Shown here: piece after piece, positions 6,343 through 52,176 of the stretch
How the letters are laid out: the number at the start of each line of letters is the position of its first letter
How positions within the stretch are numbered: the first letter of the stretch is position 1
Origin: Acidimicrobiaceae bacterium
Lineage (GTDB): Bacteria > Actinomycetota > Acidimicrobiia > Acidimicrobiales > Ilumatobacteraceae
Reading direction: 5' to 3'
Length of the DNA stretch: 64,000 bases
Assembly: GCA_016722025.1 (NCBI GenBank)
Contig: JADKGZ010000018.1
Span: 3,437 to 67,436, forward strand
Notes under the pieces: generated by a model
What the model was told of the DNA's origin: nothing
Seen by the model: only the letters and a program-made list of their open reading frames with translations
The model's database searches: none
Made by a program: the position numbers and the translations under genes

Positions 6343-6379
6343 TCGTGGTTCGGGTCGTTCGGGTCGTTCGGGGTCGTTC
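6343..6379. repeat. 9-bp tandem repeat GGGTCGTTC (3 full copies plus 1 degenerate)
   Basis: Copies at 6352-6360, 6361-6369 and 6371-6379, with a degenerate copy at 6343-6351. Lies between the MMPL stop and the CMD-family gene start. Confidence 0.85.
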
Positions 6380-8563
6380 AGTGCGAGAAGTGCACGTGGG
6401 GCAGGCGCTTGTCGAGCCAGGCGGGGATCCACCAGTTGCGCTCGCCGAGCAGCTTCATCAACGATGGCACCAACATCATGCGCACGACGGTGGCGTCGAG
6501 CAACACGGCGAGCGCCAAGGTGATGCCCAGCTCGGTGGGTGGGATGGGCCCGGTGACGCCGAAGGCGATGAACACCACGATCATGATGAGCGCTGCGTTG
6601 GTGATCGGCCGGCCGGTGCGGGCGATGCCGTCGCGGATCGCCAGTTGGGTGTCGCCGGTGGCCTCGTAGCGCTCGCGGATGGCGGCCAGCAGGAACAGCT
6701 GGTAGTCCATCGACAGGCCGAAGAGCAGGGCGAAGAAGAACAACGGTGCCCACGCATCGACGAAGCCCTGCGGGTGGATGCCGATCAGGCTTGCTCCCCA
6801 CCCGTGCTGGAACACCAGCGTGGCGAAGCCGAAGCTGGCGCCGACGCTGATGAAGTTGAGCAGGATCGACGAGATGGCCAACGCCAGGCTGCGGAACACG
6901 ACCAGCAGCAGCACGAACGCCACCAGCGTGATCACCGCGATGGCGAGCGGCGCTTTGCCGGTGAGCACCTCGGTGAGGTCGTAGTTCTGAGCGGCAGGAC
7001 CACCGACCTCGGCAGTGGGTGCGGCCTCGCCGATCGAGCTGCGCAGGCGGGCGATCAAGTCGGAGGTGGCGGCGTCATCGACCGCAGTGGCCGGAGTGAT
7101 GCGCACGACCGTGCGGCCGGTGGTTTCCGAAGGTTGGGCGACGATGCGCGCATCCACGACGCCGGCGTCGGCCTGTGCCGTGGCAACCACTTGGTCGGCC
7201 TGCGCGGCGTCGACGGTGACGAACAGCGGGCCGGCGGCACCAGGGCCGAATGCCGAGACGACCATCTCGTAGCCGTCGCGGCTGGAGCGGCCCTCGTCGA
7301 CCACGCAGGCGCCGGGCATGCCGAGCCGCATCCCGAGCGCCGGCGCGGCCAGTACCAGCAGCATGCCCAGGCCGATGGCCAGGGTGATCGCGGGGCGCTT
7401 CATCGCCCGAGCAGTCCATCGGGTCCAGCGGCCTTCGGCGGCGCGGTCGGGGTCGTCGGCGGCGCTGGCCACGAGCACCCGGTCACCCAAGGCCACCAGC
7501 ACGGCCGGCAGCAGTGTGAGTGACGCGGCGGCAACGGCCACCACGGAGAAGATCATGCCCAGTGCCATCGACCGGAAGACCATGACCGGCACGACGAACA
7601 CCGCAGCAAGGGACAGGACGACGGCGAGTGCAGAGAGGAACACGGCCTTGCCGGCGGTGTCGAGCGTTGCGGCGATCGCCCTCCGGCGTCCTTGCCGTCC
7701 TCGCGCTCCTCCCGGTAGCGCGAGACGATGAACAGGCTGTAGTCGATGCCGACGGCGAGGCCGATCATCATCGAGAAGTTCATCGACCACACCGACAGCG
7801 GCGTGAACGAAGTGGCCAGGTGGAGGCTGGCGAAGCCGACCGCGATGCCCGACACGGCCAGGATCAACGGCAACCCGGCAGCGATGGCCGAGCCGAATGC
7901 GATGAACAGCAGGATGAGGGTGGGGAGACCCGAGAGCAGTTCAGCCTTGTGCAGTGCCTCCTCGTTCGAGTTGTTGAAGTCGCTCCACACTGGCCACTCG
8001 CCGGTGACCTCGGCGCGGGCACCCGCCGGCAGCTCGAGGTCGGCGACCCGGTCGATGACGAGGCCGGCCGACTCTGGACGCTGCGCGTCGTCGGTTGCGA
8101 GCAGTTCCACCGGGATGAGTGCGGTGAGGCCGTCCTGGGAGATGAGGCCCGCTTCCGGCGGCATGGTCATCGGGTCGGCGACGGCCTGCACGCCCTCCGC
8201 GCCGGTGAGTGCTGCCACCACGGCGGCGACGGCAGACGGGTCGTCGACGATCGGCGTGGCCTGCTGCACGACCACGACGGCCGCCTCGGCGCCCACCTCG
8301 GGGAAGTCGCTGCGCAGCTCGTCGCGCACACGCTGGGCGATCGACCCCTGCGCTTCCCAGCCGGCGCCCGACAGCGAGCTGCTGACGCTGATCGCCAGCG
8401 GTGCCGCGGACAGCGCCACGACCAGCCAGGCGAAGATCAGGGGCTTGCGTCGGCGGGCGGAGAAGCGGCCGAGGCGAGCGAACCAGTGCTCGGCTGCCTG
8501 CCCTTCGAGAGCGCTGTCGCCGTTGGCGTCGTGGTCGGTGGGCGTGTCGAGAGTTGCAGCCAT
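6378..8563 (-). pseudogene. MMPL/RND-superfamily membrane transporter interrupted by a -1 frameshift near 7678-7684
   Basis: ORF 7553-8563 reads ...SLFIVSRYREEREDGKDAG and then turns to nonsense. ORF 6378-7790 resumes with AIAATLDTAGKAVFLSALAVV... in the -1 frame. Together they form one typical two-bundle MMPL protein. Confidence 0.8.
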
Positions 8564-8579
8564 GACGGCATGCTAGCGA

Positions 8580-8595
8580 ATACCCCCGGGGGTAT
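8580..8595. promoter_or_regulatory. perfect 16-bp palindrome ATACCCCCGGGGGTAT (copy 1), candidate operator
   Basis: Read directly from the sequence. It lies 17 nt upstream of the MMPL ATG and 100 nt upstream of the DUF2892 ATG. An identical element is at 12373-12388. Confidence 0.6.
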
Positions 8596-8694
8596 ACAAC
8601 CTGACACGTGCGAGGTGATGTGACGGATCGCGCGAATGGCGCATCTACTCCGGTGGCGGCGCACATGCCGCTCACTTCCCAGAGGAGTCACCTC

Positions 8695-8916
8695 ATGTCC
8701 TTCGCTCGTTTCATGGCAGGTCCGGTTGGTCGCGGCGTTCGAGTCGCGGCCGGCCTGGCGATGATCATTGCCGGCATCGCAATCGGCTCTACCGGCGGAT
8801 GGATCCTTGCCGTCGTTGGCGTGCTGCCGTTGCTGGCCGGGGCGCTCAACGTGTGCGCGCTCGCGCCGATCCTGAAGGCGCCGTTCAGCGGGAAGGCCGC
8901 GTTGAACAGCAAGTAG
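8695..8916 (+). CDS. DUF2892 (YgaP-like) small membrane protein
   Basis: 73 aa with two hydrophobic helices. The ...GRGVRVAAGLAMIIAG...LLAGALNVCALAPIL pattern is typical of DUF2892. GAGGAG RBS upstream. Confidence 0.75.
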   Translation: MSFARFMAGPVGRGVRVAAGLAMIIAGIAIGSTGGWILAVVGVLPLLAGALNVCALAPILKAPFSGKAALNSK

Positions 8917-8930
8917 GGCAGACTTCCCGC

Positions 8931-9458
8931 GTGGATTCGTCGGATCGTCCGCTGACGCCCGCTGAGCGTTCGTGGCTCATCGAGCTGTTCGAGCGCACGG
9001 TCGACGGCGCGCATAACGTTGCGTACCGGCTGGTGTGGAACCATGCCGATGCCCTCGACGTGGTGCAGAGTGCGTTCGTCAGCGCTGCTCGTCACCGTCA
9101 CCAGCTCCGCGATCCGCAACGGGCGCGGAGCTGGTTGCTGGCATTGCCTCATCGCGAAGCACTGATGGTGCTTCGGTCGCGCCGCGACGTGCCCACCGAC
9201 CCGGTGGACCTGCCCGAACCCGTGCTCGTCGAGGTCGACCCGGCGGAGTCCGCGATCCGCAGCGAGCTGGCGCGCCTGCTCGACTGTGCGATTCGCGACC
9301 TGCCCGATCTGTTGCGAGCGGCGTTCGTGTTGCGCGACGTGGAGGAGCTGCCGATGAACGAAGTGGCCCATGTGCTGGAGATCGGCGAGTCGGCGGCGAA
9401 GATGCGAGTCGCCCGTGCTCGTGAGAGCCTGCGCATCACGTTGGCCGGAAGGATCTGA
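8931..9458 (+). CDS. ECF (group IV) sigma-70 family sigma factor
   Basis: Region 2 (DALDVVQSAFV...) and region 4 HTH (ELPMNEVAHVLEIGESAAKMRVARAR). GTG start at 8931. Confidence 0.85.
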   Translation: MDSSDRPLTPAERSWLIELFERTVDGAHNVAYRLVWNHADALDVVQSAFVSAARHRHQLRDPQRARSWLLALPHREALMVLRSRRDVPTDPVDLPEPVLVEVDPAESAIRSELARLLDCAIRDLPDLLRAAFVLRDVEELPMNEVAHVLEIGESAAKMRVARARESLRITLAGRI

Positions 9459-9459
9459 G

Positions 9460-9735
9460 ATGAACTGCAGTGAGTTGGAAGCGCATCTCACCGACTTCCT
9501 CGACGGTCAGCTCGGCCCGGCCACTGAAGCTGCTGCGCTCGAGCACATCGCCTCCTGTGCACGATGCGAGGCAGTGCTCGCGGGCACACGCGCGGTGATC
9601 GACCTGGCGGGCGACGTGGGCAGAGTGGAACTCGAGGCGGCCGGTCGTGAGCGCCTGCTGCAGAGCATCCTCCACGCGTCGCGCTCGCGCGCGGTGCCAG
9701 ACGGCAGCGTGGGTTCAGCTGAGCGCGAGCGCTGA
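9460..9735 (+). CDS. soluble zinc-binding anti-sigma factor (ZAS, RsrA-like)
   Basis: Starts 1 nt after the sigma gene stop. Carries the H-x3-C-x2-C motif (HIASCARC) plus an upstream Cys3. No TM segment. 91 aa. Confidence 0.75.
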   Translation: MNCSELEAHLTDFLDGQLGPATEAAALEHIASCARCEAVLAGTRAVIDLAGDVGRVELEAAGRERLLQSILHASRSRAVPDGSVGSAERER

Positions 9736-10572
9736 GCGCACTGCCGTGTACACGGCCACCACCACCAGCAGGCCAACGAACCAGCGCTGCAAGGAACTGG
9801 AGTCGCGGGTGCTCGCCAGGCGGCTGCCGATCACCACACCGATCATGCTGGCGATCGTGAAGGGGATCACCGTTCCCCACTCGATCGATCCCGCTTGCAG
9901 CCGAGTGGAGAGCGCAACGACCGAGTTGATCGTGATCACGAGCAGCGACGTGCCCACCGCCTCCGCCATCGTGAAGCCGAGGGCGAGCACCAGTGCCGGC
10001 ACGATGACGAAGCCGCCGCCGACGCCGAAGAAGCCGGTCAGCAGACCGACCACGGTTCCTGCGACGACGACCTTCACGATCGTGCCCGGGTCGATGTGGC
10101 GCGCCGTGACGGCGGCGCCACCAGCACCCGGGGCCGTGCCGGGCGTGTCGTCCGGCGTGTCGTCGGGCGTGTCGTCGGAAGGGCTACCGGCTGATGTCGA
10201 TGGTGTCGTGGCCTTGCTCGCTCGTCGCCACATCGCATAGGCAGCGACCAGCATCAGGCCGGAGAACGCGAGCAGGAGCACATCGGGGTCGGCGGCCTTG
10301 TTCCAGTGCGAGCCCAACAGCGAACCACCGATGCCGGCGAGCCCGAAGATGGTGCCGGCGACGAACCGCACGCGGCCGGCGCGCCAGTGAGGGGCGATGC
10401 CGATCAGGGCAGTGAGAGCGACGAGCACCAGCGAGGTGGTCGTGGCCTGCTTCGGGCTCTGCCCGGCGGCGTACACCAGTGCCGGCACTGCCAGGATGGA
10501 CCCGCCGCCGCCCAGCGCCCCCAGCGAGATGCCGATGAGGAGGCCAAGTGGTGAGGCCAGCAGCGCGCGCAT
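9715..10572 (-). CDS. TauE/SafE family sulfite/anion exporter
   Basis: Two repeated 4-TM halves with GGGGSILAVPAL and GVGGGFVIVPAL motifs. Confidence 0.85.
   Translation of the reverse strand: MRALLASPLGLLIGISLGALGGGGSILAVPALVYAAGQSPKQATTTSLVLVALTALIGIAPHWRAGRVRFVAGTIFGLAGIGGSLLGSHWNKAADPDVLLLAFSGLMLVAAYAMWRRASKATTPSTSAGSPSDDTPDDTPDDTPGTAPGAGGAAVTARHIDPGTIVKVVVAGTVVGLLTGFFGVGGGFVIVPALVLALGFTMAEAVGTSLLVITINSVVALSTRLQAGSIEWGTVIPFTIASMIGVVIGSRLASTRDSSSLQRWFVGLLVVVAVYTAVRSALALS
10142..10177 (-). repeat. in-frame 12-bp tandem repeat x3 encoding DDTP DDTP DDTP in the central loop of TauE
   Basis: Units at 10142-10153, 10154-10165 and 10166-10177. Confidence 0.9.
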
Positions 10573-10579
10573 GAAACGC

Positions 10580-10921
10580 TCAGATCACCACGCCGGGGTT
10601 GCCGGCGTGATTGACCATCGGGTGCCCGAAGCTGGACCATGCGTACATGCCGCCGGTCATGTTGAACGCGTCGAAGCCTTGCTCGCGCAGCCAAGCAGTG
10701 ACACGCGCCGAGCGGTTTCCCGAGCGGCAGATGCAGATCGTGCGCCGAGTGCGGTCGAGCTCTCCGATGCGATCGGCGAGCTCGCTCATCGCAATGTGAA
10801 CGGCGTTGGGTGCGTGTCCGCTCATCCACTCTTCGTACTCGCGCACGTCGAGCAACACGGTGTCGGCCGGTGCGGATGCAGCGGCGTCCACATCGATGGA
10901 GGGCAACAGGTCGGGCGCCAT
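10580..10921 (-). CDS. single-domain rhodanese sulfurtransferase
   Basis: 113 aa with active-site loop CRSGNRS. The ATG overlaps the stop of the upstream gene (TGATG). Confidence 0.85.
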   Translation of the reverse strand: MAPDLLPSIDVDAAASAPADTVLLDVREYEEWMSGHAPNAVHIAMSELADRIGELDRTRRTICICRSGNRSARVTAWLREQGFDAFNMTGGMYAWSSFGHPMVNHAGNPGVVI

Positions 10922-12315
10922 CACTGCGTGCCTTCCGCGAGAGCGTGGGCCTGCCAGGCGGTGTAGCCGCCGACGAGATCGCTCACGTCGCTGAAGCCAT
11001 GTGAGCGCAGCAGGCTGGAGGCGATGGCCGAGCGATAGCCGCCGGCGCAGAACACGACCGTCGGTGCAGCGGGGTCGAGCTGGTCGAGGCTGTTCAAGAG
11101 TGCGGGAAGGCTGATCTTCCGGGAGCCGGCGATGCTGCCGAGGGCGACCTCGCCCGGGTTGCGCACATCCACGAGCACCAGCTGCGGCACGGTGGCGATC
11201 CGCTCGACAAGCGTGTCGGCCGACAGTCGCGACAGCGGTTCCACGTGCTCGGGGTGCGCGAGGAACGCCTCGAACGGCTGCGCCAGTGCACCCAGCACGC
11301 GATCGAAGCCGATGCGTGCGAGTCGCACCTTGGCTTCTGCTTCGTGGCCCGGCGGAGTGACCAGGACGATCGGGGTCTCCGGTCGCATCACCTCGCCGGC
11401 GTATTCGGCGAAACGGCCGCCGAGACCGACGTTCACCGACCCGCGCAGGTGGCCGGCCGCGAAGGCCATGTCGTCGCGCGCATCGAGAACGACGGCGCCG
11501 TCGTGCTGATGGGCCAGCACCTGCTCGATGGTGAGCGGGGCGACGCTGACATCCTCGGCCAGCAGCTCGCGCAGCTCGCGGTTGCGATTCGCGGCGAAGG
11601 AGAAGTAGAGCGGCGCCACCGACTGACCCTGGGTGACCGCTTCGACGAAGTCGTCCTCGCTCATCGGGGCGAGCGCGTAGTTGGTACGCCGCTGCTCGCC
11701 GATGGTGGAGACCGTCTCGGTGGAGAGGTTCTTGCCGCACGCCGACCCTGCACCGTGTGCGGGAAACACCTTGGTCGCATCGGGCAGCGTGAGCAGTTGC
11801 TCGTGCAGCGAGTGGTACAGCTGCCGGCCCAGCTCCTCGGCGGTGACGCCGACGGATGCCAGCAGGTCGGGTCGACCGACGTCGCCGATGAACAGCGTGT
11901 CGCCGGTGAGCACGCCGTAGGGCAGATCGTCGGTGCCGTGGGGATAGATGACGATGCTGATCGACCTCCGTGTGTGCCCGGGGGTCTCGCGAACCTGCAG
12001 CGCGACCTCGCCGAGGTCGATGACCGCACCGTGCGCGTAGGTCGTGATCGGGAACTCGGCGCGCCCTTCGGCAGCGCTGCCGTAGCCGATCGTGGCGCCG
12101 GTGTGCGCGGCGAGCTCGAGATGGCCGGAGAGGAAGTCGGCATGGAAGTGAGTTTCCAACACGTGAGTGATGGTGAGGCCATGCGCCTCGGCGTCGGCGA
12201 GGTACTCCGCAACATCGCGCTGGGGGTCGACCACCACGGCCCTGCCAGTGGTGGTGTCACCGATGAGGTAGCTGGCGTGCGAGAGGCACCCGAGGTAGTA
12301 CTGGCGGAAGAACAC
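10921..12315 (-). CDS. MBL-fold persulfide dioxygenase fused to rhodanese domains (CstB-like)
   Basis: N-terminal metallo-beta-lactamase fold (ETHFHADF). C-terminal rhodanese with catalytic loop CAGGYRS. AAGGAG RBS 8 nt before GTG 12315. Confidence 0.9.
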   Translation of the reverse strand: MFFRQYYLGCLSHASYLIGDTTTGRAVVVDPQRDVAEYLADAEAHGLTITHVLETHFHADFLSGHLELAAHTGATIGYGSAAEGRAEFPITTYAHGAVIDLGEVALQVRETPGHTRRSISIVIYPHGTDDLPYGVLTGDTLFIGDVGRPDLLASVGVTAEELGRQLYHSLHEQLLTLPDATKVFPAHGAGSACGKNLSTETVSTIGEQRRTNYALAPMSEDDFVEAVTQGQSVAPLYFSFAANRNRELRELLAEDVSVAPLTIEQVLAHQHDGAVVLDARDDMAFAAGHLRGSVNVGLGGRFAEYAGEVMRPETPIVLVTPPGHEAEAKVRLARIGFDRVLGALAQPFEAFLAHPEHVEPLSRLSADTLVERIATVPQLVLVDVRNPGEVALGSIAGSRKISLPALLNSLDQLDPAAPTVVFCAGGYRSAIASSLLRSHGFSDVSDLVGGYTAWQAHALAEGTQ

Positions 12316-12368
12316 GATTGATGCTCCTTGTCGAGAACGGTCGAGGTTCGAGGCGGTTCTTGTGTGGC

Positions 12369-12394
12369 AACTATACCCCCGGGGGTATTATTCC
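12369..12394 (-). promoter_or_regulatory. candidate ECF (SigR/SigH-type) promoter GGAAT-N18-GTT
   Basis: The minus strand reads GGAAT aatacccccgggggtata GTT, so the spacer is exactly 18 nt. It lies 54 nt upstream of the CstB-like GTG. Confidence 0.5.
12373..12388. promoter_or_regulatory. perfect 16-bp palindrome ATACCCCCGGGGGTAT (copy 2), candidate operator
   Basis: Identical to 8580-8595. With flanks, the 18-mer AATACCCCCGGGGGTATA is identical in the direction of the downstream operon at both sites. Confidence 0.6.
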
Positions 12395-12412
12395 AACTCG
12401 TTGGATCGACGC

Positions 12413-13144
12413 TCAACCACTCGAGCCGCGCTCCATGTCGCTGGCAATGATCGCGTCGTAGTCGGCCTGTGAGATGTACGCGGGCGTGTAGTCGGCGCCA
12501 TTCTTCGCGAGCTGCTTCGTGAACGCACGCAGGTGGTTGCGGGACCCCTTCTCCAGGTTCGCATACACCAGCGCCAGGTCGGGTGTGTCGGTGGCGAGTG
12601 ACCGCAGGTCGGAGATGTCGAGGTCTTCGATCGTGGCGCCCACCTCGAGTGCATCGACCAGCGAGCTGCTCCCTCGTTCGACGAGGCTGGTGTAGAGCGA
12701 CTGCAGGTCGGCGTTGGTGAACTCACCGACCGCGTTCCCCGCAGCAGGGTCGGCGAGGTCGTAGCGATCCAGCAACGTCAGCACCGCGTCGGTGTGCGTC
12801 AGCTCGGAGGACGAGATGTTGTCGAACGCCTGCAGCTGCCACTGGTCGTAGAGCGTCGAGTACACGTCATGAGCCAGCTTCTCCTCCTCGCGCATGCGCA
12901 GCAGGCCCGCCGTCTCGGCGGTCGTCAGCTCCGCCTTGGGCATGGCCTCGAGCCGGGTGTCCAGCACCGCAGGATCGAAGTTGCTCTCGCCGTTGGAGCC
13001 GACCTGCATCGGGCCCGATCCGCCGCCGTTGCCAGTGCCGTTGCCGTTGCCGTTGCCGCCGGACGAGCAGGCGGCGAGCACCACGGCGGCCACCACCATC
13101 ACTGCCGTGCGGCGCGCGGAAACCTCTTCGACTCTGCATCGCAT
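12413..13144 (-). CDS. DUF2202 ferritin-like domain lipoprotein
   Basis: Lipobox VLAACSS followed by a GNGNGNGTGNGGGS linker. MREEEKLAHDVY and SSELTHTDA motifs are typical of DUF2202. Start uncertain. Confidence 0.65.
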   Translation of the reverse strand: MRCRVEEVSARRTAVMVVAAVVLAACSSGGNGNGNGTGNGGGSGPMQVGSNGESNFDPAVLDTRLEAMPKAELTTAETAGLLRMREEEKLAHDVYSTLYDQWQLQAFDNISSSELTHTDAVLTLLDRYDLADPAAGNAVGEFTNADLQSLYTSLVERGSSSLVDALEVGATIEDLDISDLRSLATDTPDLALVYANLEKGSRNHLRAFTKQLAKNGADYTPAYISQADYDAIIASDMERGSSG

Positions 13145-13256
13145 CCTCCTTCGGATACCTCCCAGGGTATGACGAGGAGCGTTGCGTGGATACTGCCGAA
13201 AGGCCTCTTGGTGGAACGCTGGCGGTGGACGCAACTGCTGAGCTCGCAGGCTGGGC

Positions 13257-14645
13257 TCAGCAGTCGATCTCGTAGAACTGCACGGGGGCACCTGGCAGCG
13301 GGCTCAGCTCGAGACCGATGGTGAACGTGGCGCCGGTGCCCTGCACCACGATGTCGCCGCGGGTGGCTGCCGCGGGGCGCAACTCGACGATGTGCAGTGG
13401 CCCGTGTGCTGCGATCAACCGGCCAGCTTCCGCACGTCGCCTGACCAGCGCGTCGTCGAGATCGACGTTGTCGTCGAACAGCGCTGCGGCATCGCCGTCG
13501 CTCCACTCGTTGAGCAGGGCCACCAGTCGGTGGGCGGCAGCCGCCCAGTGCGGCCCCGCCGGCACCGGAGTGGCCGGCGCGTGGCCATGAGCGAGCAGCA
13601 CATCGAGCATGCGCATGGTGAGCACGCCCATCGGCGCGTAGGTGGTGTTGCCCAGCGCGATCGCACCAACGCCGCGACCCGCCAGCCAGCGCATGTTGCT
13701 GCCGTAGCCCGGGAGGCCTCCGGCGTGTGCAACCACCTTGCCCAGGCTGGGTTCGTCGCGCACGTTGAGCCCGAATCCGTAGCCCGCGGGGCACGAGCGC
13801 CCGGCCACCGTCGTGACGCCGATGTAGGTGTGCGCACGCTGCATCTCGCGCCGGCTGGCCGCCGAGAGGCCGTCGCTCGCGGGCTGATGCGGCAGCGAGT
13901 TGGCCGAGTCCAGCCAGGCGATCCACTTGGCGAGGTCGGCGACGGTGCTCCACAACCCACCCATCGGGGCGATCTCGCCGTCGCCGATGGGTGTCGGCCA
14001 GTCGCGGACCAGTTCCCCGTCGCGCCAACGGTGTGGTCGAGCCCAGTGTTCGTGCTCGGGTCGCACCCACGTGGTGTCGACCATGCCCAAGGGCTGCAGC
14101 AGTCGACTCGTGATGTGCTGCTGCACGCGGCTGCCGGTGGCGCGCAGCACAGCCCGGCCGATCATGCCGAAGCCGAGGTTGCTGTACTCGTAGGCGGTGT
14201 CGGGCAGGTGAGCAAAGGTTGGCCCTGCGGCGTAGATGCCGTCGATCTCCTCGGCCGTGATGTCGAGGTGACGGTCGGCCCACGCATCGTCGGTGGCCAA
14301 ACCCGAGGTCATCGAGAGCAGGTGGCGCAGCGTGATGGGCGGCGAACCGGCGGGGCCGGACACCGAGCCCAACTCGGGCGCGTGACGCGCGACCGGGTCG
14401 TCGAGCTGCCAGACACCTTCGTCGCGCAGCGCGAGCACCACTGCCGCGGTGAAGCTCTTCGTCATCGATGCGATGCGGTAGACCGCTCGCTCGTCGGCCG
14501 GTAGGTGGTCGTGGAGGGTGCCGGTGCATCCGTGCTCGACGAGCTGGCCGCCGGCGACGACGCCCCACGAGATGGAGGCGACGTGCTCGTCGAGCGCAGT
14601 CGTGTCGGAGAGTTCTTGCAGCTCGGCACGGCACTCAGGAGTCAC
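13257..14645 (-). CDS. serine hydrolase (class C beta-lactamase / PBP-like family)
   Basis: S-x-x-K motif SMTK in ...YRIASMTKSFTAAVVLAL. Start placed at GTG 14645, although ATG 14702 is also possible. Confidence 0.8.
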   Translation of the reverse strand: MTPECRAELQELSDTTALDEHVASISWGVVAGGQLVEHGCTGTLHDHLPADERAVYRIASMTKSFTAAVVLALRDEGVWQLDDPVARHAPELGSVSGPAGSPPITLRHLLSMTSGLATDDAWADRHLDITAEEIDGIYAAGPTFAHLPDTAYEYSNLGFGMIGRAVLRATGSRVQQHITSRLLQPLGMVDTTWVRPEHEHWARPHRWRDGELVRDWPTPIGDGEIAPMGGLWSTVADLAKWIAWLDSANSLPHQPASDGLSAASRREMQRAHTYIGVTTVAGRSCPAGYGFGLNVRDEPSLGKVVAHAGGLPGYGSNMRWLAGRGVGAIALGNTTYAPMGVLTMRMLDVLLAHGHAPATPVPAGPHWAAAAHRLVALLNEWSDGDAAALFDDNVDLDDALVRRRAEAGRLIAAHGPLHIVELRPAAATRGDIVVQGTGATFTIGLELSPLPGAPVQFYEIDC

Positions 14646-51105: not shown

Positions 51106-52176
51106 TCACCGGTGCCGGTGCCGGTGCCGGTGCCGGCGCCGGCGAAGCGCGGCACGTGCCCGGTGGCTGCGCGCGACCCGGGTGCGGCGCTCCATCCGGT
51201 TCCAGAACCAGAAGGTGCCGACGGTGATTCCCCAGCCGACCAGGCCATCGATCACCCAGTGTTCGCCGAGGTAGACCAGTGAGGCCAGCATCGTGATGGG
51301 GAACAGCAGCAGGGCCACCTTCACCCACGTCTGGCGGATCCACTGCATGAAGAACAGCGGCACGATGAGCGCGAAGGACGCATGCAGCGACGGCATCGCG
51401 GCAACGCCGTTGCCGTTGCTGAGTGCGATCTTGTAATCGTTGGTGAAGCCCTTGAACCCGAGGTGGCGAAAGCCGCGGCCGGCGTCGCGATGCAGCTCGT
51501 GGAACAGCTGGTACGGGTACTTGGGGCTGGCCACCATCCATGGTGGCGCGGTGGGCAGCAGCACGAACAGCAGGCAGCCGACGCCCAGCAGTGTGGCGAA
51601 GCGCTTCATGAACCGCACCCACTGCCGATGGCTGAGCACCCACAGCACCGCCATCGCGATGATGGGGAACACGAAGTGGGTCATGTACGTCGCCGAGGCC
51701 ACCACGTCGTACCAGCGCACCGATCGCTCCCAGAAGTGATCCTGCAGCACGGTGTTGGGGTCGTGTCCGAAGAACATCGCGCGGTCGATGTTGCGCATCG
51801 ACTCCACCTGCAGCGGATACGGCCCGACCTGGAACAGCCCGAAGACCTGAAAGCCGTCGTCGGCGGCGCCGCGTGTCTTCTCGTAGGCGAGCCACATCAC
51901 GATGTAGAAGGCACAATCGACCAGCAGGATGCCCCAGGTGCGCCAGCTGCGCCCGACGAAGGCGCAGACCAGGAAGATGGCCACGCTGATGGCCACCGAG
52001 ATGCGGTCGATGGGCAAGCCCTTCAGGCGCAGCCAGAGCAGGTAGGCCAACAGGTAACTGAACATCAGCCCCAGTCGCACCGGTTGGAGGTGGTCGACCG
52101 GAACCACCGAACGCAGCGACAGGCGCGTCGGCGGCGGCACGAAGGTGGGTGCCTCGGTGGTCGACATGGTCGCCAA
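51106..52176 (-). CDS. PAP2-superfamily membrane protein (PAP2_3 / IPC-synthase-like type)
   Basis: Multi-TM, with the MPSLHASFAL motif and a basic tail ending [12 protein letters not shown]. Confidence 0.75.
   Translation of the reverse strand: MATMSTTEAPTFVPPPTRLSLRSVVPVDHLQPVRLGLMFSYLLAYLLWLRLKGLPIDRISVAISVAIFLVCAFVGRSWRTWGILLVDCAFYIVMWLAYEKTRGAADDGFQVFGLFQVGPYPLQVESMRNIDRAMFFGHDPNTVLQDHFWERSVRWYDVVASATYMTHFVFPIIAMAVLWVLSHRQWVRFMKRFATLLGVGCLLFVLLPTAPPWMVASPKYPYQLFHELHRDAGRGFRHLGFKGFTNDYKIALSNGNGVAAMPSLHASFALIVPLFFMQWIRQTWVKVALLLFPITMLASLVYLGEHWVIDGLVGWGITVGTFWFWNRMERRTRVARSHRARAALRRRRHRHRHRHR
51111..51140. repeat. hexanucleotide repeat (GGTGCC x4 plus GGCGCC)
   Basis: Read directly. Encodes the HRHRHRHR tail of PAP2 and lies 10 nt upstream of the PIN start. 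Confidence 0.9.

Follow-up and report, generated by a model that had tools for sequence, protein, structure and literature searches.

A putative SigH-type promoter with a CstR-type operator in its spacer upstream of a persulfide dioxygenase operon in Acidimicrobiia

Introduction

Can a persulfide-sensing repressor and a thiol-stress sigma factor be directed to the same few bases of DNA? The question is raised by a 64,000 nt stretch of contig JADKGZ010000018.1 (GenBank assembly GCA_016722025.1, from an Acidimicrobiaceae bacterium), here called the window, in which a gene for a CstB-like persulfide dioxygenase is preceded by a perfect palindrome. The initial annotation of this DNA took the bases on either side of the palindrome for a promoter of the kind read by SigR and SigH, which are extracytoplasmic function (ECF) sigma factors, and proposed that it is read by an ECF sigma factor encoded close by.

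Promoters read by SigH in Mycobacterium tuberculosis follow the consensus GGAAYR-N17(-18)-GTT (PMC4803200). In Corynebacterium glutamicum the consensus is gGGAAta and t/cGTTgaa, and a T at position 5 is found in promoters that are read by sigma-H and not by sigma-E (PMC10012870). SigH and SigR targets include thioredoxin and sulfur-metabolism genes (PMC4803200, PMC10012870, PMC3489674). The palindrome belongs to a different literature. In Streptomyces coelicolor, the persulfide-sensing repressor ScCsoR (CstR) binds a 16 bp ATACC-N6-GGTAT sequence at the promoters of persulfide dioxygenase and rhodanese genes and of its own gene (PMC7533328). The CstR-like proteins of actinomycetes form a large and mostly uncharacterised cluster of the CsoR family (PMC8643695). 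Proteins of this family occupy an operator of this kind with two tetramers (PMC3902906, PMC8643695).

Here, we argue that the element upstream of the cstB-like gene is a composite, a SigH-type promoter with a CstR operator nested in its spacer, and we consider it probable, from comparative sequence analysis, that this composite drives an operon of cstB-like, rhodanese and TauE genes. The argument draws on the sequence and its conservation, on a spacing that stays invariant across three registers, on the surrounding genes and on the regulators of CstR type that relatives encode.

Results

The composite element

On the minus strand, positions 12394 to 12369 read GGAAT-AATACCCCCGGGGGTATA-GTT, with the palindrome in the spacer, exactly as the initial annotation had reported. 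Viewed as hexamers, the same bases are GGAATA (12389–12394), 17 nt and GTT (12371–12369), followed by a G at 12368, and they can be read as the -35 element and the GTT(G) -10 element (12368–12371) of a SigH/SigR-type promoter. The resemblance to the SigH/SigR consensus that had been claimed is in fact closer in this view: the flanks equal the optimal form GGAAYR-N17-GTT (PMC4803200), agree with the gGGAAta and GTTg of C. glutamicum and include the T at position 5 (PMC10012870). All but one of the 17 spacer positions are occupied by the 16 bp perfect palindrome ATACCCCCGGGGGTAT (12373–12388), which fits ATACC-N6-GGTAT exactly and has a G/C tract at its centre. The same palindrome is found again at 8580–8595, where, as had also been noted, the GGAAT and GTT flanks are missing.

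From the end of the GTT to the GTG start codon of the cstB-like gene, at 12315, is 53 nt, in line with the proximity noted in the annotation. The usual distance from an ECF -10 element to the start site is 6–10 nt, which places the predicted transcription start region at 12358–12363 on the minus strand.

Conservation of the flanks in related loci

The comparison set consisted of 80 genome loci and 80 metagenome loci encoding relatives of the CstB-like protein, cited below by L numbers, with the window's own locus designated WIN. The nearest loci are from metagenome-assembled genomes (MAGs) of Ilumatobacteraceae and other Acidimicrobiia, at 80–85% identity, which is the range of the CstB-like orthologues in L001, L084, L085 and L131. 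This relationship places the window in that group and not among the classical actinomycetes. GGAATA-N17-GTTG with the operator in its spacer was found at eight cstB loci, namely WIN, L001, L003, L041, L085, L110, L131 and L139, of which L110 and L139 are near-duplicates. Across these loci, CstB identity to the window protein ranges from 59% to 85%. GGAAT, GTT and the palindrome, which the annotation had proposed to follow through orthologous loci, are therefore co-conserved in seven cstB loci besides the window and in at least four lineages, while the surrounding bases vary; the syntenic L084, a close relative, has lost GGAAT and GTT. When WIN, L001, L003 and L041 were aligned, the only invariant blocks were GGAATA, the operator core and GTTG. 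Every composite site points toward the gene, despite the symmetry of the operator.

The position of the operator relative to the flanks is not fixed. In L003, L110 and L139 the operator lies 1 nt nearer the -10 element, and the distance from GGAATA to GTT is still N17. A third register is seen in L045 and L116, where GGAATA-N17-GTTG is upstream of a thioredoxin gene (L045 11505–11957; L116 353–2575, with the operon order trx-cstR-cstB) and the -35 element overlaps the operator (GGAATACC...). Thioredoxin is a classic SigH/SigR target. Together, the eight cstB loci and the two thioredoxin loci share an invariant GGAATA, with variable bases upstream of it, and in these 10 composite sites GTTG is also invariant and always N17 after GGAATA, whichever of the three registers the operator is in. 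The bipartite element keeps its own spacing across several operator registers, as would be expected of a promoter and not of an extended operator. GGAAT-N18-GTT is also found immediately upstream of the operator in two further loci, L017 (Acidimicrobiales) and L027 (Mycolicibacterium).

A set of Mycobacterium-type loci (L018, L020, L024, L025, L029, L035, L112 and L120) has kept GGAAT and not GTT, and was not counted as support. These loci have two to four tandem CstR-type operators, and their GGAAT is followed 18–20 nt on by (C/G/A)TTGA(C/T)A, with the result that a sigma-A -35 element stands at the GTT position. The arrangement may be a hybrid or decayed SigH promoter. Upstream of cstB in L120 the spacing is GGAAT-N20-GTT, and this locus was hence left out of the N18 counts.

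Motif counts against chance expectation

Within the window, the count of GGAAT-N18-GTT is not significant on its own, with two occurrences where 0.32 are expected, a count that 6 of 100 shuffles also reach; GGAAYR-N17-GTT occurs once against 0.61 expected. The second GGAAT-N18-GTT (51206–51231, minus strand) lies within an open reading frame (ORF; 51106–52176) for a 356 aa membrane protein and was dismissed as a chance match. No other convincing SigH-type motif was found near genes in the window.

Across the loci, 5 of the 52 from genomes have GGAAT-N18-GTT no more than 200 nt upstream of cstB, where the background rate is 0.002 per 200 nt. GGAAT[AG]-N17-GTT[GA] has 15 matches in 1.07 Mb of actinobacterial loci, 10 preceding cstB and 2 preceding thioredoxin genes. 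Both enrichments are weakened as support by being measured against the loci's own flanks, the loci having been picked for carrying cstB. A search for GGAA[CT]-N17-19-GTT returned matches near 11 of 123 operator sites, and all 11 were GGAATA with N17; neither GGAAC nor any other spacing was found. The motif is beyond chance on the comparison across loci, not on the window alone.

The counts within the window are what could be cited for the view that the GGAAT and GTT flanks are a fortuitous match, or an extension of the operator, and have no promoter role. That view is barely credible. With GGAATA on one side and AGTTGC on the other, the flanks are asymmetric and so do not extend the palindrome; at least four lineages have kept them, always facing the gene, and N17 is constant in all three operator registers.

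The operator and the regulators of relatives

The locus contains three ATACC-N6-GGTAT sites, against 0.58 expected for a relaxed form of the motif. The third, ATACCTCCCAGGGTAT at 13155–13170, was absent from the initial annotation. Operators of this type lie in the promoters of genes for persulfide dioxygenase, rhodanese and TauE here and in dozens of related loci, where a CsoR-family gene often adjoins cstB. Among the 48 CsoR-family entries from the fetched loci, a few of which are listed twice, 43 have D/E-C-G-C, with two Cys and no copper-ligand His. A single protein of the copper type (Y-C-H-C) was found among the 48, encoded 5.5 kb from cstB.

The ECF sigma factor encoded nearby

Three genes on the plus strand (8695–9735), identified from Pfam, NCBIfam and PDB rankings, encode a YgaP-like transmembrane (TM) protein (8695–8916), an ECF sigma factor (8931–9458) and a zf-HC2 anti-sigma factor (9460–9735), hereafter the module. 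An ECF sigma and anti-sigma pair is thus present 2.6–3.4 kb from the composite, as had been pointed out, and no other ECF sigma gene was found in the window when all ORFs were searched with phmmer. In the version first put forward, this sigma factor reads GGAAT-N18-GTT, and CstR controls both the sigma operon through copy 1 of the palindrome and the target through copy 2, in a feed-forward loop. The pair lies only 2.6 kb from the promoter, a CstR-type operator precedes the sigma operon in WIN, L001 and L084, the module is near sulfur genes in L081 and L082, and the anti-sigma factor has a zf-HC2 domain as well as residues C3, H29, C33 and C36 that are, by eye, spaced as in RsrA.

The family assignment of both proteins speaks against this version. 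The best NCBIfam and PDB matches of the sigma factor are generic ECF, SigJ, SigE, SigM and SigW, and SigH_actino is not among its 25 best NCBIfam models. The PDB ranking is SigJ > SigE > SigW >> SigH, with M. tuberculosis SigH in 11th place (E = 2e-5), and the sigma factor shares only 28% identity with the SigH-like one of L048 described below. Likewise, the anti-sigma factor scores 22.5 bits against the RsrA model, for which the cut-off is 62.5, and shares the zf-HC2 motif alone, so the 'RsrA-like' label of the annotation is not borne out.

The module also has a motif of its own. In all six module loci (WIN, L001 and L081–L084), TGTGACCGAT-N13-GCATCCAC (aTGTGACCGAT-N13-GCATCcAC), which is unlike GGAAT-N18-GTT, precedes the first gene by 45–55 nt; the window's copy is TGTGACGGAT-N13-GCATCTAC (8619–8648, plus strand). 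Judged from its sequence and position, this is probably the ECF sigma's own promoter. A second copy was not found in the window or the loci, and a GGAAT-N18-GTT autoregulatory promoter of the ECF operon is absent from 6/6 loci. Copy 1 of the palindrome is approximately 24 nt upstream of the motif and, by eye, is a better fit to the promoter of the divergent MMPL gene. Finally, the composite and the module dissociate in both directions: L131, L003, L041 and L110 have the composite and no module in their flanks, while L084 has the module and full synteny and has lost the composite consensus. On the family assignment, the separate promoter motif and this double dissociation we rejected the neighbouring ECF sigma, which probably does not read the cstB promoter, and the feed-forward version is highly improbable.

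A SigH-like system in a related locus

The reader is likely a SigH-like sigma factor encoded elsewhere. A sigma factor of this kind was found in the Acidimicrobiia locus L048 by tblastn with approximate M. tuberculosis SigH, RshA and RsrA queries, and was checked independently with NCBIfam. The best model for its ECF sigma is SigH_actino (116.7 bits) and that for the 98 aa anti-sigma factor that follows is RsrA, with both proteins under the NCBIfam equivalog cut-offs. GGAATG-N17-GTT is directly upstream, and the whole system (L048 13717–14616) lies 4.4 kb from a cstR-cstB operon.

Sigma-A elements around the same operator

Several observations weigh against a SigH-type promoter under CstR control. 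Neither regulator is encoded close by, as a CsoR/CstR gene is absent from the 64 kb window (regular expression search and tblastn with five family members) and no SigH/RsrA pair was found there. The best tblastn match to CsoR (947–1099) falls within a cytochrome c gene, on the opposite strand, and was discarded. The operators of copper-CsoR at copZA in Streptomyces lividans are nearly identical, so the operator sequence by itself cannot tell CstR from CsoR (PMC3902906). For this reason the assignment is based on the surrounding genes and on the regulators that relatives encode, from which the 16 bp palindrome is predicted to be the operator of a CstR-type persulfide-sensing repressor encoded outside the window. 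In the syntenic L084, where CstB is 81% identical, the sequence is GGAAAT-ATACCCCTAGGGGTAT-ACAGTG and the SigH-type elements have not been kept. Lastly, a TAnnnT can be read by eye at the right edge of the operator in WIN, L001, L003, L041 and L084 (TATAGT, TATGTT, TACCGT, TACAGT), and a sigma-70 scan of the window returned TTGAGC-18-AATAAT at 12416–12387.

In L084, the operator is present in the segment 9915–9975 (minus strand), and the flanks look decayed by a 1 nt insertion and substitutions.

The TAnnnT readings and the scan match could instead reflect an ordinary sigma-A promoter under the CstR operator, with either TATAGT (12376–12371, minus strand; read by eye) as the -10 element and a poor -35, or AATAAT (12392–12387), to which the scan adds a preceding TG; GGAAT and GTT would then be by-products. 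Many relatives do frame the operator with clear sigma-A elements, including TTGACG-N17-TATAAT (L086), TTGACG-N17-TATCAT (L090) and TTGACA with TATAAT or TATATT (L033, L039), and TTGTnT-N17-TATCAT is found in L002, L005, L087, L089 and L140. Moreover, sigma-A promoters of actinobacteria often have no recognisable -35 element (PMC10012870). An account of this kind leaves GGAATA, the G after GTT and the N17 spacing in three registers unexplained. AATAAT is replaced in L003 (AATAGG), in L110 and L139 (AATATG) and in L045 and L116 (AATACC), and no TTGnnn was found 16–18 nt before TAnnnT in any of the eight composite loci. We therefore regard a sigma-A promoter in place of the SigH-type one as unlikely. 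A sigma-A promoter that overlaps the SigH one, with TATAGT (12371–12376) as an additional -10 element, is possible by analogy with P1 and P2 of C. glutamicum dnaK (PMC3917453). The SigH reading and the TATAGT reading predict nearly the same transcription start.

The two kinds of frame also differ in their neighbours. Among loci with a SigH-type frame, only L027 has a CsoR-family gene in the flanks that were fetched, 2 kb away, and in sigma-A-type loci a CsoR-family gene is usually within 0.1–0.9 kb.

Proposed mode of action

Under the SigH-type reading, GGAATA and GTTG would be recognised by a SigH-like sigma factor that is encoded elsewhere and held by an RsrA-like zinc anti-sigma factor. The spacer could accommodate an operator because its individual bases are not read by an ECF sigma. 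Two tetramers of reduced CstR would lie over the spacer and extend to both promoter elements, keeping RNA polymerase out. Cross-linking of the CstR cysteines by sulfane sulfur would bring about release of the repressor, and thiol oxidation would free the sigma factor from its zinc anti-sigma, allowing initiation near 12358–12363 and an mRNA leader of approximately 45 nt that includes AAGGAG (12329–12324). Binding, occlusion, the identity of the sigma factor and the two-signal logic are all inferred here. Full firing would be expected only with both signals, an AND-type logic, and the operon probably needs both. The weak overlapping sigma-A -10 element TATAGT may supply some basal expression and would soften this logic.

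A more far-reaching proposal has three parts: that the promoter is a strict AND gate with two inputs, around which sigma-A offers no effective route, that a constant operator has repeatedly been re-framed by sigma-A (TTGACN/TATAAT) or sigma-H (GGAATA/GTTG) elements in Acidimicrobiia and mycobacteria, and that the YgaP-TM/ECF/zinc anti-sigma module is a separate sulfur-stress sigma system near a CstR site. We put this forward tentatively, as a possibility that is somewhat less likely to be right than wrong.

Genes and other features of the locus

The putative operon on the minus strand begins with the cstB-like gene (10921–12315), which encodes 464 aa with one Lactamase_B and two Rhodanese domains (Pfam) and is preceded by a Shine–Dalgarno sequence, AAGGAG (12324–12329), that is kept in L001, L131 and L085. 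It is followed by a gene for a single-domain rhodanese (10580–10918; NCBIfam rhodanese models), which is syntenic in L001, L084, L131 and L085, and by a gene for a TauE/SafE sulfite exporter (9715–10572; Pfam TauE, E = 2e-49), which is also syntenic.

Upstream of the composite and in the same orientation as the cstB-like gene is a gene for a predicted DUF2202 lipoprotein (12413–13144, minus strand; Pfam DUF2202, E = 2e-58; signal peptide and lipobox by eye), the stop codon of which is 18 nt upstream of GGAATA. The palindrome was considered as a terminator of this gene or as a structured RNA. No intrinsic terminator (GC-rich hairpin with a T run) was found at the palindrome, its folding is ordinary (z-score -0.96) and an Rfam search of 8400–13400 returned no match, which rules out both. 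The third operator copy (13155–13170) is 11 nt ahead of the DUF2202 start and is found in the same place in L001, L131 and L084. From this conserved operator, the DUF2202 gene appears to be a member of the CstR regulon.

Operator copy 1 (8580–8595), which is kept in L001 and L084, sits between the YgaP-TM/ECF/anti-sigma operon and a gene for an MMPL transporter that diverges from it. The ATG of the MMPL gene is at 8563, 17 nt from the operator, and a TTGTAT-N18-TAGCAT frame can be read by eye on the minus strand around copy 1, which suggests that the MMPL gene may be leaderless and CstR-repressed. The MMPL reading frame is split into overlapping ORFs (6378–7790 and 7553–8563), by a frameshift or an assembly error. 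In L082, an MMPL gene also adjoins a CsoR-family gene.

The module recurs across Acidimicrobiia in varied, unrelated contexts. Its anti-sigma factor is a small soluble zinc protein, and sulfur genes are frequent among its neighbours. There is a hint here that the module could be an uncharacterised sulfur or thiol stress system.

Discussion

If the SigH-type reading is right, a single promoter joins two much-studied but hitherto separate redox circuits of actinobacteria, the SigH/SigR–RsrA response to thiol oxidation and the CstR response to reactive sulfur. The locus would be a compact and testable case of combinatorial control, in which an ECF promoter holds a repressor within its spacer, and SigH-type promoter logic would be extended to the little-studied and mostly uncultured Acidimicrobiia. 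The natural series in which the same operator has a sigma-A or a sigma-H frame could be useful for studying the evolution of promoter class and for building synthetic ECF AND-gate promoters. Were repeated re-framing to be confirmed, promoter class would be what evolves and the operator what stays constant.

Comparison with known systems

The closest parallel on the repressor side is the ScCsoR circuit of S. coelicolor, with sco0620 as the repressor gene. It shares ATACC-N6-GGTAT, targets that include a persulfide dioxygenase–rhodanese fusion, rhodanese and TauE genes, and several operators per locus, one of which overlaps the core promoter at -9 of the mapped start (PMC7533328). In S. coelicolor, however, the repressor is encoded next to its targets and controls its own gene, with no alternative sigma factor reported, whereas here cstR is missing from the 64 kb and GGAATA and GTTG frame the operator. 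The DUF2202 gene, the MMPL gene and the ECF module are additions to the apparent regulon at this locus.

The cst operons of Staphylococcus aureus and Streptococcus share an x-C-x-C CsoR-family repressor, a TACC..GGTA operator and CstB, rhodanese and TauE proteins with the locus described here (PMC8643695, PMC5480029). They differ in belonging to Firmicutes and in having AT-rich operators and sigma-A promoters. We know of no ECF sigma input at these operons.

On the sigma side, promoters of SigH in both M. tuberculosis and C. glutamicum, as well as of SigR in S. coelicolor, share GGAAYR, N17, GTT and the T at position 5 with the composite, and the regulons listed in the same studies contain no cst gene, persulfide dioxygenase gene or CstR-controlled target (PMC4803200, PMC10012870, PMC3489674). 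A point of difference is the host, which here is of the Acidimicrobiia type, with SigH-like proteins below the family equivalog cut-off.

The initial annotation took as undescribed an arrangement in which a palindrome fills an ECF promoter spacer, so that a repressor and an alternative sigma factor could compete at the same DNA. The claim of novelty is overstated, as dedicated repressors are documented at SigH promoters of C. glutamicum: overlapping sigma-A (P1) and sigma-H (P2) promoters are found at dnaK together with HspR operators (HAIR) in the same region (PMC3917453), and SufR and ClgR act at other SigH targets (PMC3489674, PMC3917453). CsoR-family operators in sigma-A spacers are also common in relatives of the present locus. 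What the dnaK region and the composite have in common is a sigma-H promoter, perhaps overlapped by a sigma-A promoter, together with a dominant, dedicated stress repressor. The dnaK region differs in the repressor family and in the signal, which is heat there and sulfane sulfur here, and in that here the operator is fully within the ECF spacer and sister lineages frame the same operator with sigma-A elements. Among the papers that could be searched, none links CstR with SigH or SigR. The pairing of CstR and SigH at one promoter, an operator lying wholly in an ECF spacer, and the swap of sigma-A and sigma-H elements around a constant operator all appear to be new.

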